Origin: a virus
Taxonomy: Duplodnaviria; Heunggongvirae; Uroviricota; Caudoviricetes
DNA length: 13,647 nt
Strand: one strand, 5' to 3'
Virus record (IMG/VR): IMGVR_UViG_2671181019_000008
Below, piece after piece: positions 3,092 to 9,311 of this stretch. Numbering within the stretch: position 1 is the stretch's first letter; every line of letters starts with the position of its first letter. Position numbers and translations under genes: made by a program. The notes under the pieces are model-generated. The model worked only from the letters and a program-made list of their open reading frames with translations. It was not told the origin of the DNA and made no database searches.

Positions 3092-3302
3092 AAACGGTTT
3101 GCGGGAAAAGGAGAGTTAAGTAGAATTGCAGCGGGTGCTTGAGGCTATCTGTCTCAGGCATGAACACCAAAAGGCAGATAGAGAAAAGCCCCAGTTAACA
3201 TTACGCGTCCGGCAAGACGCTTAACATTAATCTGAGGCCATATCTATGCTCTACACACGTAGGTTAGCCTCTTACGTGCCGAAAGGCAAGGAGAAGCAGG
3301 CT

Positions 3303-3458
3303 ATGAAGCAGCAAAAGGCGATGCTAATCGCCCTGATCGTCATCTGTTTAACCGTCATTGTGACGGCACTGGTAACGAGGAAAGACCTCTGCGAGGTACG
3401 AATCCGAACCGGCCAGACGGAGGTCGCTGTCTTCACAGCTTACGAACCTGAGGAGTAA
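3303..3458 (+). CDS. hokD: Hok/Gef-family type I toxin (51 aa), HokD/RelF-like
   Basis: MKQQKAMLIALIVICLTVIVTALVTRKDLCEVRIRTGQTEVAVFTAYEPEE has the Hok/Gef signature (TM helix, LTRK.LCE.R, TEVA.F.AYE) and matches E. coli HokD/RelF as I recall it. SD AAGGAGAAG upstream. Track ORF 3246-3458 is an in-frame upstream extension. Confidence 0.85.
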   Translation: MKQQKAMLIALIVICLTVIVTALVTRKDLCEVRIRTGQTEVAVFTAYEPEE

Positions 3459-3526
3459 GAGACCAGGCGAGGGAGAAATCCCTCGCCACCTCTGATGTGT
3501 CAGGCATCCTCAACGCACCCGCACTT

Positions 3527-3548
3527 AACCCGCTTCGGCGGGTTTTTT
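3527..3548 (+). terminator. Rho-independent terminator after hok; first copy of an exact 23-bp repeat
   Basis: CCCGC-TTCG-GCGGG stem-loop followed by T6. It is preceded by a perfect 9-bp stem GGCGAGGGA-gaaa-TCCCTCGCC at 3466-3487. The 23 bp TAACCCGCTTCGGCGGGTTTTTT (3526-3548) recur exactly at 5361-5383. Confidence 0.75.
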
Positions 3549-3549
3549 A

Positions 3550-3600
3550 TTGGTTGACAAAATTATGAATATGCACCAATATCTTGGTTGACAAAAGTCG
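3550..3600 (+). promoter_or_regulatory. Candidate promoter/operator of the cargo operon with tandem 13-bp direct repeats
   Basis: TTGGTTGACAAAA at 3550-3562 and again at 3584-3596 (34 bp apart); each contains a consensus -35 hexamer TTGACA. The region sits directly upstream of gene A. Confidence 0.5.
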
Positions 3601-3631
3601 TTTTTTGCACGGATTAGGCGGAGAAGTGTCT

Positions 3632-4225
3632 ATGCAGAACCATCCATTCCCTTGGGAGTTCTTTCCTGAGTTAACAGAGGAGCGTTTAACCATTATAGCT
3701 GAGGAGTTGCTCAGGATACAGGATATTACTCATGAGTTATTGTCATCGCCCTATGATGATAATTACACTCGTGGTGGTTGTACATTTGGGCGTCAGCGGC
3801 AGGCGTTGCTACAAATGTGCGTACGAAAGACATATGACTGGTTAAGACTACTTAATCCTGGCATGGATCTTACGTTTTCAATTGGGAATGTCCCTATTCG
3901 TTTCTTTACTGATGACGCAGATAACCCCAAGAAACGCGGTTTTTTCAAAAGAAATGATGCTGATCGACTCTTTGAGTCAGAGGAGACTACTCCAACTATG
4001 CATCGCTTTGTGGTTGAAAAGCCTGAATTTGAAGGCGAGGGTGGTAGAGTCATTTTTAATGGCTATAACGTGTTTGGTGAGATCGTGTCAACTTGGACAT
4101 ATGGTGCGGACCGTGTTGTTATGCTGAACTCTGTCGATGATGTACCTCCAGCACCGGTACCTATCGAACTAGAACCTATCAGTGCGTCTAAGACTGAGAA
4201 GGAAAAGAAACAAAATAGCAAATAG
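3632..4225 (+). CDS. Hypothetical protein, first gene of the cargo operon (197 aa from ATG 3632; no recognisable motif)
   Basis: Track ORF 3584-4225 begins with TTG inside the promoter repeat; ATG 3632 has SD GGAG 8 nt upstream. Appears less G+C-rich than the backbone (by eye). Confidence 0.6.
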   Translation: MQNHPFPWEFFPELTEERLTIIAEELLRIQDITHELLSSPYDDNYTRGGCTFGRQRQALLQMCVRKTYDWLRLLNPGMDLTFSIGNVPIRFFTDDADNPKKRGFFKRNDADRLFESEETTPTMHRFVVEKPEFEGEGGRVIFNGYNVFGEIVSTWTYGADRVVMLNSVDDVPPAPVPIELEPISASKTEKEKKQNSK

Positions 4226-4235
4226 TGGGTGAAAT

Positions 4236-5357
4236 GTGTTTAACGGTACTAATTTAAGACTTGCTCGTCTGTATCACGAGCTATCTCTGGAGCAGGTTGC
4301 TGAGAAGGTTGAAAAAACACGCCAGTATGTACAGCGACTGGAGTCTGGTTCAGCTACTCCATCCCCAGAGCTTATAAATAAATTAGCCGAGGTTTTGCGC
4401 GTGAAGCCCGCCTTTTTCGAAGGGCAGGAACATTCTCCTGTTAATGAAGAGATTGTACATTTTCGTAAACGCGCCTCGACAAGGATGTCAACGAAGCTAT
4501 CAACACTCGCTAAGGCTGAGTTTTATCGTCGTTTTATTGATGTATTTGAAGATAACCTTAATTTGTCACCTGTTCGATTTCCTGAATTTCGTGTCCATAC
4601 ACAAGAAGATATCGAGCGAGCGGCAGAAAAATGTCGTATTGAGTGGGGCTTAGGCTTTGGCCCAATTGAAAATATGACTCGCCTTGCCGAGAAACTTGGG
4701 GCGTTTGTTACTTCATTTGACTCCGTTTCGGATGAAGTAGATGCACTGTCTGTTCCTCTGCGAAGGCCTTTTATTGTTCGAAATACAGCTAAAAATTCAC
4801 CTTGTAGGCAACGCTTTGATATTGCTCATGAGGTTGCCCATTTGATTCTTCATGAAGGAATTTCTACTGGGGATAGATTAACTGAATCCCAGGCAAACCG
4901 TTTTGCCTCTGCTCTGTTGCTTCCCAGAACGTCGATGGCGAAATATTTTCCAAGACCTGTGGGGGGGAGGATAAATTGGCAGGGACTAAGCCAATTTAAG
5001 TTGACATGGAAAGTAAGTAAGGCTGCCATTGTTTACAGGGCTCATCAATTAGGACTTTTGACTGATGAGCAGTACAGAACTGCATTTATGGGGTTGAAAC
5101 GGAAAGGGGAAGCTATTGATGAAAAAGAAGATTATCTAATCCCTCATGAGCGTCCTGAGTTATTCCGTCGGGCTTTATCGTTTTTATTTGAAGAGTTAGG
5201 ATACGACCCACAGCGTATAGCTGATGAAATGGATATAGAAGTGGACATTTTTTATGAGTTAGTAGGAGATGATCTTCCTGCGGTTCATGAACTGCCAGGA
5301 AGTGGTGATGTTGTTTCACTACAATCTTACCGAACTCTTAGAGGCAAAATTCACTAG
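4236..5357 (+). CDS. Fusion protein: N-terminal XRE-family HTH plus C-terminal ImmA/IrrE-type (M78-like) HExxH metallopeptidase domain
   Basis: N-terminus LRLARLYHELSLEQVAEKVEKTRQYVQRLESG fits an XRE helix-turn-helix. HEVAH at nt 4827-4841, within FDIAHEVAHLILHEG, is a zinc-peptidase HExxH motif. Starts 10 nt after gene A. Confidence 0.75.
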   Translation: MFNGTNLRLARLYHELSLEQVAEKVEKTRQYVQRLESGSATPSPELINKLAEVLRVKPAFFEGQEHSPVNEEIVHFRKRASTRMSTKLSTLAKAEFYRRFIDVFEDNLNLSPVRFPEFRVHTQEDIERAAEKCRIEWGLGFGPIENMTRLAEKLGAFVTSFDSVSDEVDALSVPLRRPFIVRNTAKNSPCRQRFDIAHEVAHLILHEGISTGDRLTESQANRFASALLLPRTSMAKYFPRPVGGRINWQGLSQFKLTWKVSKAAIVYRAHQLGLLTDEQYRTAFMGLKRKGEAIDEKEDYLIPHERPELFRRALSFLFEELGYDPQRIADEMDIEVDIFYELVGDDLPAVHELPGSGDVVSLQSYRTLRGKIH

Positions 5358-5361
5358 GCAT

Positions 5362-5383
5362 AACCCGCTTCGGCGGGTTTTTT
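5362..5383 (+). terminator. Rho-independent terminator after the cargo operon; second exact copy of the 23-bp repeat
   Basis: TAACCCGCTTCGGCGGGTTTTTT at 5361-5383, 4 nt after the stop at 5357; identical to 3526-3548. Confidence 0.75.
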
Positions 5384-6797: not shown

Positions 6798-7172
6798 ATG
6801 CTCATAGATTTGGTTTTACCTTACCCGCCGACGGTGAACACTTACTGGCGACGCCGTGGCAGCACATATTTTATCTCGGAGGAGGGAAAGCGTTATCGCC
6901 GGGCTGTGGCGCTTATTGTTCGCCAGCAGCGGCTGAAATTAAGCCTGTCCGGAAGGCTGGCGATAAAGGTGATTGCAGAGCCACCGGATAAGCGTCGTCG
7001 CGACCTGGACAATATTCTGAAAGCACCACTGGATGCGCTGACGCATGCCGGACTTCTCATAGACGACGAGCAGTTTGATGAAATCAATATTGTGCGCGGT
7101 CAGCGCGTTCCTGGGGGGCGACTGGGCGTGAAGATTTACCCCATAATGCTTGAAGGGCAGGTCAAAAAATGA
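6798..7172 (+). CDS. rusA: RusA-type Holliday junction resolvase
   Basis: 124 aa; motifs TYWRRRG, RRRDLDNILKA, DAL, GGRL match the RusA family as recalled; SD AAGAGGTGA upstream. Confidence 0.85.
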   Translation: MLIDLVLPYPPTVNTYWRRRGSTYFISEEGKRYRRAVALIVRQQRLKLSLSGRLAIKVIAEPPDKRRRDLDNILKAPLDALTHAGLLIDDEQFDEINIVRGQRVPGGRLGVKIYPIMLEGQVKK

Positions 7173-8270: not shown

Positions 8271-9311
8271 ATGGTTTCTGAAACTGTAACGATTACGTTC
8301 TATAAAATTCAAAAATGTGGTTACTACCGTTACGGTGTTGTAAGCCCTGCATTTGGTGGTTGTGACGAGTTGCTCACAGATCTTGCTTTATGGGCAGAAG
8401 GGAAAAAACTCAAACAGACAAAGACATATGAAGCAAATGATGAGGTTTTACCTGCTTATCTTCTGGATATGAAACGTGCTGGTGACAATGTGGTTTTGTT
8501 GCTCTGGAATGAGGTTCCTTCTACAGATCAAAGTGTTCCATCGGTTCAGGAAGATACAGAATTTGGTACGGACCCAACAGTAATACTTAATTCAATCCAG
8601 AAGGGAAGTATTCCTGGTTTTGCTACTTACTTTTGGTTTATTCCATCCATGGATTTAGTGGCTAGCATCAAGTTTAACCATGCTTTGACGGGACAGAAGG
8701 CGATGCAATGCTATCTCTATCATTTTTTAAAACAGTCATCAAGCCACGTTGTGGCGGAAAGTGTGGAGAAGGAAGATGGCACGCATGAGGTGGTTATCAA
8801 GGGCTATAAAATTAACCCAACAGATGATGTGCTGCCAAAGAAAAAACACTATCCACAGTTCGTAGCTGGTTTAGTAAGAAATCCTGGTAAACATGAAGTT
8901 ATTAGGCAGAATGCTAATATTGTTTCTAAAATTGAAAAGGTTGTTGAACTTGATGTGTCAAAACCTGACGAGTTTAGCCTGTGGCAAAAACTATTGATTA
9001 ATATGAATATTAGCCATCCACAAACTGCAAATACCTCAACAAAAATTAGATATGAACTTTCTCCGAATGTTGATATTGATGACATCGAGGGGATGATTGA
9101 TGATTGGAATAAACATAGCGATACAAACTCTTGTGATTATGGTTTTGTATTTAAAGGAGATCCAACGACATATTGGCTCAGTCGTTCATTAGCACGAACC
9201 AAATTCCACTTGAATTTGGAGCGACAGGACGCCGAGTTTGTGTCCTCGGAATCTCTTCTTTCTGAACTTGTAGGCAAAAGGGAGCTCATATTACGCGAGG
9301 CGGGAATGTAG
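8271..9311 (+). CDS. Hypothetical soluble protein (346 aa), first gene of the AT-rich cargo pair
   Basis: Long ORF, clearly AT-rich by eye (first 60 nt about one-third G+C). No motif I can assign. Sits where Stx phages carry stx, between tR' and the holin. Confidence 0.65.
   Translation: MVSETVTITFYKIQKCGYYRYGVVSPAFGGCDELLTDLALWAEGKKLKQTKTYEANDEVLPAYLLDMKRAGDNVVLLLWNEVPSTDQSVPSVQEDTEFGTDPTVILNSIQKGSIPGFATYFWFIPSMDLVASIKFNHALTGQKAMQCYLYHFLKQSSSHVVAESVEKEDGTHEVVIKGYKINPTDDVLPKKKHYPQFVAGLVRNPGKHEVIRQNANIVSKIEKVVELDVSKPDEFSLWQKLLINMNISHPQTANTSTKIRYELSPNVDIDDIEGMIDDWNKHSDTNSCDYGFVFKGDPTTYWLSRSLARTKFHLNLERQDAEFVSSESLLSELVGKRELILREAGM

Follow-up and report, generated by a model that had tools for sequence, protein, structure and literature searches.

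A putative autoregulated promoter–operator of two tandem units upstream of the Rosmerta cassette rmrT–rmrA in an Escherichia coli prophage

In this work, we analysed a pair of short direct repeats upstream of a cargo operon in a 13,647-nucleotide stretch of Caudoviricetes DNA (IMG/VR record IMGVR_UViG_2671181019_000008), hereafter the window, which belongs to a lambdoid prophage of Escherichia coli. We find that the repeats are the cores of two tandem 34-bp units, which together probably provide a sigma-70 promoter and two operators for the antitoxin RmrA in front of the Rosmerta cassette rmrT–rmrA (rmrTA). The units recur with nearly constant spacing in distant relatives, lie almost solely upstream of rmrT and, in the window, are followed by a −10 hexamer at unit 1 alone.

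Rosmerta is a validated anti-phage system. For its regulation, our literature search returned surveys in which no promoter or operator is described, and nothing relevant in Rousset et al. 2022. Here, we provide a cis-element, a predicted start site and a protein–DNA specificity table for a fused helix-turn-helix (HTH)–protease antitoxin.

A Rosmerta cassette

The two genes downstream of the repeats match the PADLOC models of the Rosmerta pair, with RmrT directly upstream of RmrA, on the same strand and separated by 10 nt:

3632–4225, + strand: rmrT, Rosmerta toxin, 197 aa (PADLOC RmrT PDLC03929, E = 5.5e-93, residues 1–197 of 198)
4236–5357, + strand: rmrA, Rosmerta antitoxin, 373 aa (PADLOC RmrA PDLC03943, E = 4.3e-201)

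RmrA joins an N-terminal XRE-type HTH domain at residues 7–61 (Pfam HTH_3, 1.5e-12) to an M78 Zn-peptidase domain (Peptidase_M78, 8.4e-17) with an intact HExxH motif (HEVAH, residues 198–202), of which H198, E199 and H202 are invariant in 11 relatives. It also matches the PADLOC models capP (2.8e-17) and capH (5e-10), more weakly. It is the sole protein of the cassette in which a DNA-binding domain was recognised; the profile matches of RmrT point to no known fold or function, and a search against solved structures gave weak matches to the HTH alone. Judged by these profile matches, the cassette is a Rosmerta (RmrT/RmrA) defence system. Evidence for toxicity, neutralisation and phage protection comes from the literature on other members; a deletion of rmrA was reported to be unobtainable, a result compatible with a model in which RmrA acts as a repressor.

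Two units of two boxes each

As given in the preliminary description of this DNA, TTGGTTGACAAAA occurs twice, exactly and on the + strand, at 3550–3562 and 3584–3596 (34 bp start to start), and each copy holds a perfect TTGACA (3554–3559 and 3588–3593). The copies are direct repeats, but they are tandem in a loose sense only, as 21 bp intervene and they do not stand head to tail. No further copy with up to two mismatches lies elsewhere in the window. An exact 13-mer direct repeat no more than 100 bp apart arose in 42 of 2,000 dinucleotide-preserving shuffles of the window (about 2%), so that the pair taken alone is modestly unlikely by chance; it is the comparative data below that make its non-randomness clear.

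What is conserved of the 13-mer is a 9-mer, GTTGACAAA, which we call the A box; the remainder is particular to the window. Each unit contains a second conserved box, TGCAC (the B box), which had been overlooked and which begins 18 bp after TTGACA in both:

3553–3576, + strand: unit 1, proposed operator O1 (A box GTTGACAAA at 3553–3561, B box TGCAC at 3572–3576)
3587–3610, + strand: unit 2, proposed operator O2 (A box GTTGACAAA at 3587–3595, B box TGCAC at 3606–3610)

Unit 1 spans the −35 hexamer and the spacer of the predicted promoter. The repeats had been proposed to be operator half-sites for autoregulation; the operator part of this proposal is supported by comparison, given that the units are kept across distant hosts, their B boxes match and the RmrA recognition helix co-varies with them, whereas "half-sites" is a misnomer because each copy of TTGGTTGACAAAA belongs to a complete unit of about 24 bp. 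Taken together, the sequence comparisons delimit a compact cis-element of rmrTA at 3553–3610.

The A and B boxes do not mirror each other and form no clear palindrome, unlike most targets of XRE dimers, and their 18-bp A-to-B spacing is unusual. The dyad symmetry that we could identify is a 4-bp one in unit 2 (CAAA at 3592–3595 and TTTG at 3604–3607, that is, CAAA-N8-TTTG), which is weaker in unit 1 and whose columns are conserved.

Other candidate elements in the region were considered and rejected. The inverted repeat TATTGGT (3548–3554)/ACCAATA (3575–3581) and the sequence ACCAA-N4-TTGGT at 3575–3588, which overlaps the units, are probably incidental, since neither is conserved in a divergent E. 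coli locus (L002, described below) or in many other relatives. By eye, the boxes match no LexA, CRP, FNR or PhoB site, and such sites would also leave the clade-specific B boxes unexplained.

The units are conserved and specific to rmrT

We gathered 40 loci from viral contigs, with RmrA 100–51% identical to that of the window, and 80 loci from species-representative genomes, and took from each the DNA that precedes rmrT. When 24 distinct sequences, whose RmrT is as little as 45% identical, are aligned without gaps, the consensus is GTTGACAAA-N10-TGCACCAnnAT-N5-(g)TTGACAAA-N8-ttTTTGCAC. Its A and B boxes vary little or not at all, and the 10-nt spacer and the flanks are unconserved. In total, 37 distinct sequences have the two-unit layout ahead of rmrT; they include loci of Escherichia, Pseudomonas, Acinetobacter, Halomonas, Lysobacterales and Photobacterium and one Photorhabdus locus recognised by eye. 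The A-to-A spacing is 34 bp, though some clades have 33 bp and one locus has 32 bp, and gammaproteobacterial loci whose RmrA is 43–54% identical retain the layout at 32–34 bp. The units and their exact spacing thus persist while the spacers, flanks and proteins of the relatives (45–60% identity) have diverged. Variants of the unit-2 A box (TTTACA and ATTGACA) remain −35-like.

The layout is also highly specific. A four-box pattern with 24 specified bases has 37 matches in 2.9 million viral contigs, 34 of which are followed by an intact rmrT starting 16–40 nt downstream and one by a degenerate rmrT; the other two are orphans. These two (L127 and L153) are identical in sequence and keep both units, but their −10 has decayed and rmrTA is absent downstream, so they are, by this comparison, orphan relics. 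In another locus (L032), precisely one 34-bp unit is missing by comparison with the closely related locus L036; it was apparently lost by recombination between the repeats.

Among more distant loci with RmrA at most 37% identical, mostly from Actinobacteria, an unbiased but crude search for paired direct repeats, in which the longest open reading frame set the start codon, scored 7.9 of 10 matches, compared with 7.8 in shuffles. This limits the architecture, as established here, to the gammaproteobacterial clade.

B boxes vary with the RmrA recognition helix

The A box is nearly constant, and the B box comes in types that follow clades. The TGCAC type belongs to the E. coli clade and to Pseudomonas syringae-type loci; a second clade has TGCC[AC]G or TGCAAG, Acinetobacter has AGCAATA, two loci have GGAAC and a divergent E. 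coli variant has GCGAA. Within a locus, the B boxes of units 1 and 2 agree at 52 of 72 positions, where 37.2 are expected, a value reached in 6 of 20,000 permutations; in the adjacent spacer, used as a control, agreement is not significant. This rules out simple homogenisation of the repeats and indicates recognition by a locus-specific DNA-binding protein.

The B-box types also track helix 3 of the RmrA HTH domain, in the following pairs (helix 3, then B box):

K-TRQY[IV]-QR: TGCACC
K-TRQYL-HK: TGCCAG or TGCAAG
Y-TRQYL-HK: AGCAATA
TRQYV-SQ: GGAAC
TKQFV-SK: GCGAA

In addition, the RmrA V27 clade has an A box without the AAA tail. Aligned with the 434 repressor, the invariant RmrA residues R29 and Q30 correspond to the base-contacting Q28 and Q29, and the variable residues 33 and 34 to E32 and Q33; this alignment fits a model of constant plus variable contacts. 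The covariation spans about six to nine clades and is confounded by shared ancestry, and we therefore regard the mapping as supporting evidence, not proof, that RmrA binds the units. On this basis, we infer RmrA to be the binder, and with it the stoichiometry of binding.

An unlikely alternative is that something other than RmrA occupies the units: RmrT, as a DNA binder or co-repressor, a regulator of the host or prophage, or region 4 of the RNA polymerase sigma factor, for which the second TTGACA would be a decoy or roadblock. In both units the A box coincides with the −35 consensus of sigma-70, and the unit-2 variants remain close to it, so that part of the conservation could reflect RNA polymerase rather than RmrA; furthermore, the boxes lack the clear palindrome of a typical XRE site, and RmrT, having no recognised fold or function, could be such a binder. 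Against this, the B boxes differ from one RmrA clade to the next and agree within each locus, and no cassette protein other than RmrA has a recognised DNA-binding domain. A host or phage regulator is further disfavoured because the units accompany rmrTA in unrelated hosts, whether the setting is a phage or a chromosome.

One predicted promoter, at unit 1

The TTGACA of unit 1 is the −35 element of a predicted promoter that would serve the whole operon:

3554–3582, + strand: predicted sigma-70 promoter of rmrTA (−35 TTGACA at 3554–3559, 17-bp spacer, −10 CAATAT at 3577–3582)
3589–3591, + strand: predicted transcription start, from promoter geometry, 7–9 nt past the −10 and inside the unit-2 A box
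3620–3623, + strand: Shine–Dalgarno sequence GGAG of rmrT, 8 nt before ATG 3632

A generic promoter scan did not call this promoter because its −10 agrees with the consensus at three of six positions. Across the 37 distinct loci, we scored as a −10 any hexamer whose second base is A and whose sixth is T (A2/T6), provided that it lies 16–18 bp after an A box. Such a hexamer follows unit 1 in all 37 loci and unit 2 in 6, the window not being one of them, and in the main clade the −10 region is conserved as CAnnAT. A −10 that accompanies unit 1 but rarely unit 2 points to a single promoter, not two. Unit 2, although both its boxes are conserved, cannot be explained by promoter function, to judge from these alignments.

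With transcription starting at about 3589–3591, as predicted, O1 would extend from about −36 to −13 and O2 from about −2 to +22, which would place repeated sites over the core promoter and start of their own operon. Unit 2 is followed by the ribosome-binding site and the start codon, and the leader would be about 42 nt long, with GGAG ahead of ATG 3632; relatives carry purine-rich motifs in the place of GGAG upstream of rmrT.

These data bear directly on the suggestion, made in the preliminary description, that the repeats are tandem promoters. Two sigma-70 promoters, P1 and P2, with each repeat as a −35 and two start sites, would account for the perfect TTGACA in both copies, and in two Acinetobacter loci (L051 and L053) both units are indeed promoter-like, with TAAATT 17 bp after unit 2 (L059 is similar by eye). 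In the window, the hexamers 16–18 bp after the second TTGACA (CGGATT, GGATTA and GATTAG) lack A2/T6, which leaves unit 2 without a −10, as it is in all but those six loci, and the suggestion is not supported here. A second start would moreover fall at about 3623, within the Shine–Dalgarno sequence, and so leave no usable leader, and the conserved, clade-specific B boxes of both units would go unexplained. We therefore consider a pair of promoters improbable.

Still less probable is that unit 2 is an RNA element of the 5′ leader, controlling stability or translation, of which unit 1 is a duplicated DNA copy. A start at about 3589–3591 would place unit 2 in the transcript, and its CAAA and UUUG could pair at the 5′ end, but the predicted fold of the leader does not surpass that of shuffled sequence (z = −0.5), and its consensus fold has −0.03 kcal/mol and no compensatory pairs. 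Unit 1, upstream of the start, keeps the same boxes, and the matching of B boxes between a transcribed and an untranscribed copy indicates recognition at the level of DNA. Finally, a functionless duplication or chance repeat, for which the roughly 2% of shuffled windows with such a 13-mer pair could be cited, has next to no probability left and is effectively already refuted by the comparative data, since the units and their spacing persist across diverged relatives and the four-box pattern stands almost solely upstream of rmrT.

The same data settle the start codon of rmrT. The longest open reading frame (3584–4225) opens at TTG 3584, inside the second repeat; the preference for ATG 3632 expressed earlier is borne out by PGAP, the PADLOC RmrT model and all homologues, which start at ATG 3632. 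TTG 3584 is not the start of rmrT because the RefSeq start, the RmrT model from residue 1 and GGAG all fit ATG 3632. Annotation should accordingly not call the rmrT start codon at TTG 3584, and constructs meant to carry the native promoter need about 85 bp upstream of rmrT.

The repeats form the 5′ end of a mobile cassette

Along the prophage, the gene order is sok RNA, hokD, terminator, repeats, rmrT, rmrA, a phrog_1212 protein, a DUF968 protein, RusA and the antiterminator Q. The features that bound the cassette are:

3133–3308: sok RNA (Rfam, 117 bits)
ending at 3458: hokD (Hok/Gef)
3527–3549, + strand: intrinsic terminator of hokD/sok, from a terminator scan; 5′ boundary of the cassette
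5361–5383, + strand: terminator 3′ of rmrA, with a hairpin at 5362–5379 identical to that of the hokD terminator (TAACCCGCTTCGGCGGGTTTTTT)

Matches to 3460–3640 in E. coli comprise 4,519 records and stop at about 3547. The repeats leading into rmrTA continue in just 22–23 of the roughly 4,500 E. coli genomes that match the hokD 3′ region, and in other prophages the same slot holds other cargo or none. In a comparison with E. coli 504239 (L162), 3549–5383 differs at 2 positions and the hokD and DUF968 flanks differ at about 136; a near-identical cassette between diverged flanks indicates recent horizontal exchange of the cassette alone. With its predicted own promoter, its terminator, the break in the backbone at 3547 and its mosaic boundaries, the cassette has the attributes of a prophage "moron", and the boundary evidence makes the repeats the 5′ end of a mobile, self-contained unit. 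The cassette is thereby delimited as an exchangeable cargo unit of the hokD-to-DUF968 slot of lambdoid prophages. It was absent from a collection of deposited phages and from a plasmid collection.

The 23-bp hokD terminator hairpin TAACCCGCTTCGGCGGGTTTTTT, at 3526–3548, is duplicated exactly right after rmrA, so that the cassette is bracketed by direct repeats of the terminator; one locus (L015) has no hok upstream, yet carries the same hairpin after rmrA. Judging by its sequence and position, the hairpin may serve as a recombination joint for cargo exchange. In E. coli HH97, the same slot between hokD and DUF968 holds a second type of Rosmerta (L002, 2598–2650), with RmrA 43% and RmrT 24% identical, which keeps the two-unit layout with different boxes (GTTGACAAA in one unit, GTTTACGAA in the other, and GCGAA as the B box).

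Several further observations concern the surrounding prophage. A 346-aa open reading frame at 8271–9311, downstream of the antiterminator Q, matches the PADLOC candidate PDC-M18A (4.6e-197) and no Pfam family, and may, on the strength of this match, be a second defence cargo of the prophage. The segment 3467–3548, comprising the 3′ end of the hokD mRNA and the terminator, has a sub-threshold Rfam match to isrK, a Salmonella prophage sRNA (31 bits against a gathering threshold of 50, E = 8.7e-5). In the closest RefSeq relative, E. coli Ec-U5 (99.5% identical), rusA is annotated as a frameshifted pseudogene (L001, 7599–7974); in the window, RusA is an intact 124-aa open reading frame (6798–7172).

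Discussion

The autoregulated promoter–operator that we favour would work as follows. Unit 1 would carry the sole promoter of rmrTA, and the N-terminal XRE HTH of RmrA would bind both units, with occupancy of O1 occluding the −35 and the spacer, and occupancy of O2 covering the start site. The operon would thus repress itself and keep toxin expression low, until a phage or DNA-damage signal led the fused M78 peptidase domain to relieve repression, a step proposed by analogy with CapH/CapP, ImmR/ImmA and DdrO/IrrE.

A more far-reaching version, which we put forward tentatively and hold to be rather doubtful, would make RmrA a single-chain CapH–CapP-like sensor-repressor with a two-part operator code, in which an unchanging A box would serve as the −35 as well, the B box would differ by clade and be set by helix-3 residues 27, 33 and 34, and the four boxes would form a strict lattice of A-18 bp-B-16 bp-A-18 bp-B. 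If such a code exists, RmrA would show a non-palindromic, array-type mode of binding that is unusual for XRE domains, different Rosmerta cassettes could share a cell without cross-repression, and transcription of the toxin would be tied directly to infection sensing by the protease.

Several known systems share parts of this design. The closest in domain content are the CapH/CapP pairs of CBASS and other immune operons, in which, as here, a toxic immune operon comes together with an XRE-type HTH repressor and an M78 Zn-peptidase. CapH binds a conserved site in the promoter region and represses until it is cleaved by CapP, and 15 CapH–CapP fusions have been reported (Lau et al., bioRxiv 10.1101/2022.04.27.489752); CapH/CapP regulators of immune operons are also treated in Calloji et al. 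(10.64898/2026.05.16.725639). Whereas CapH and CapP are separate polypeptides from a divergent gene pair, RmrA is a single 373-aa open reading frame that holds HTH and peptidase together and lies downstream of the toxin in the same operon. Further, CapH has one 22-bp site, located upstream of the −35, whereas two 24-bp units lie over the −35 and spacer and over +1 here. By analogy with these pairs, RmrA may cleave itself, with derepression depending on a signal, and Ernits et al. have speculated that in Rosmer-like toxin–antitoxin systems the M78/COG2856 protease inactivates the XRE repressor.

The logic of an M78 protease acting on an XRE repressor is also shared by ImmR/ImmA of ICEBs1 and DdrO/IrrE of Deinococcus (see PMC6868357 and PMC12828697). 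Each consists of two separate proteins that control mobile-element or DNA-repair genes, and neither is known to involve a toxin gene. The targets of DdrO are palindromic.

Classical toxin–antitoxin operons offer a second line of comparison. In HipBA, MqsRA and HigBA, the toxin is likewise accompanied by an HTH antitoxin, and the operon promoter has a pair of operator copies placed over its −35, −10 or +1; higBA and mqsRA also share with rmrTA the toxin-first gene order. The HipB operator, TATCC-N8-GGATA, has an N8 geometry that resembles the weak dyad CAAA-N8-TTTG. In contrast to these systems, the units of rmrTA repeat, in direct orientation, a site that is bipartite and for the most part not palindromic, and RmrA is large (373 aa) and carries a protease domain.

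Similarly, the controller (C) proteins of restriction-modification systems are small XRE-type HTH proteins that assemble as a dimer of dimers on two adjacent sites, about 35 bp in total, over their own −35; their C boxes come in palindromic pairs, of which the proximal site is an activating one. The structure of C.Esp1396I on DNA (PDB 3CLC) served as the modelling template in the CapH/CapP work. Here, by comparison, 34 bp separate the sites, which are not palindromic and are predicted to act in repression only.

The nearest counterpart of the cassette as a whole is Vmi480/Vmi470 of the Vibrio mimicus element MGIVmi1, in which a 198-aa toxin comes first, followed by a 362-aa antidote with an HTH and a Zn-peptidase, under a predicted promoter of their own; deletion of the antidote gene by itself was not possible (Luo et al. 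2015, PMC4671572), and the pair was cited by Millman et al. as a precedent for Rosmerta. The antidote is effective even with both genes under PBAD (PMC4671572), which implies more than transcriptional repression; repression is therefore not the whole antitoxin mechanism. No operator was described in that work for the Vmi pair, which resembles RmrT/RmrA in organisation, as compared by description. Set against all of these systems, the putative control region of rmrTA is of an ordinary kind not yet described for Rosmerta, and the design suggested here is what an operon with an HTH antitoxin leads one to expect, so that it refines rather than overturns the existing picture of how such operons are controlled.
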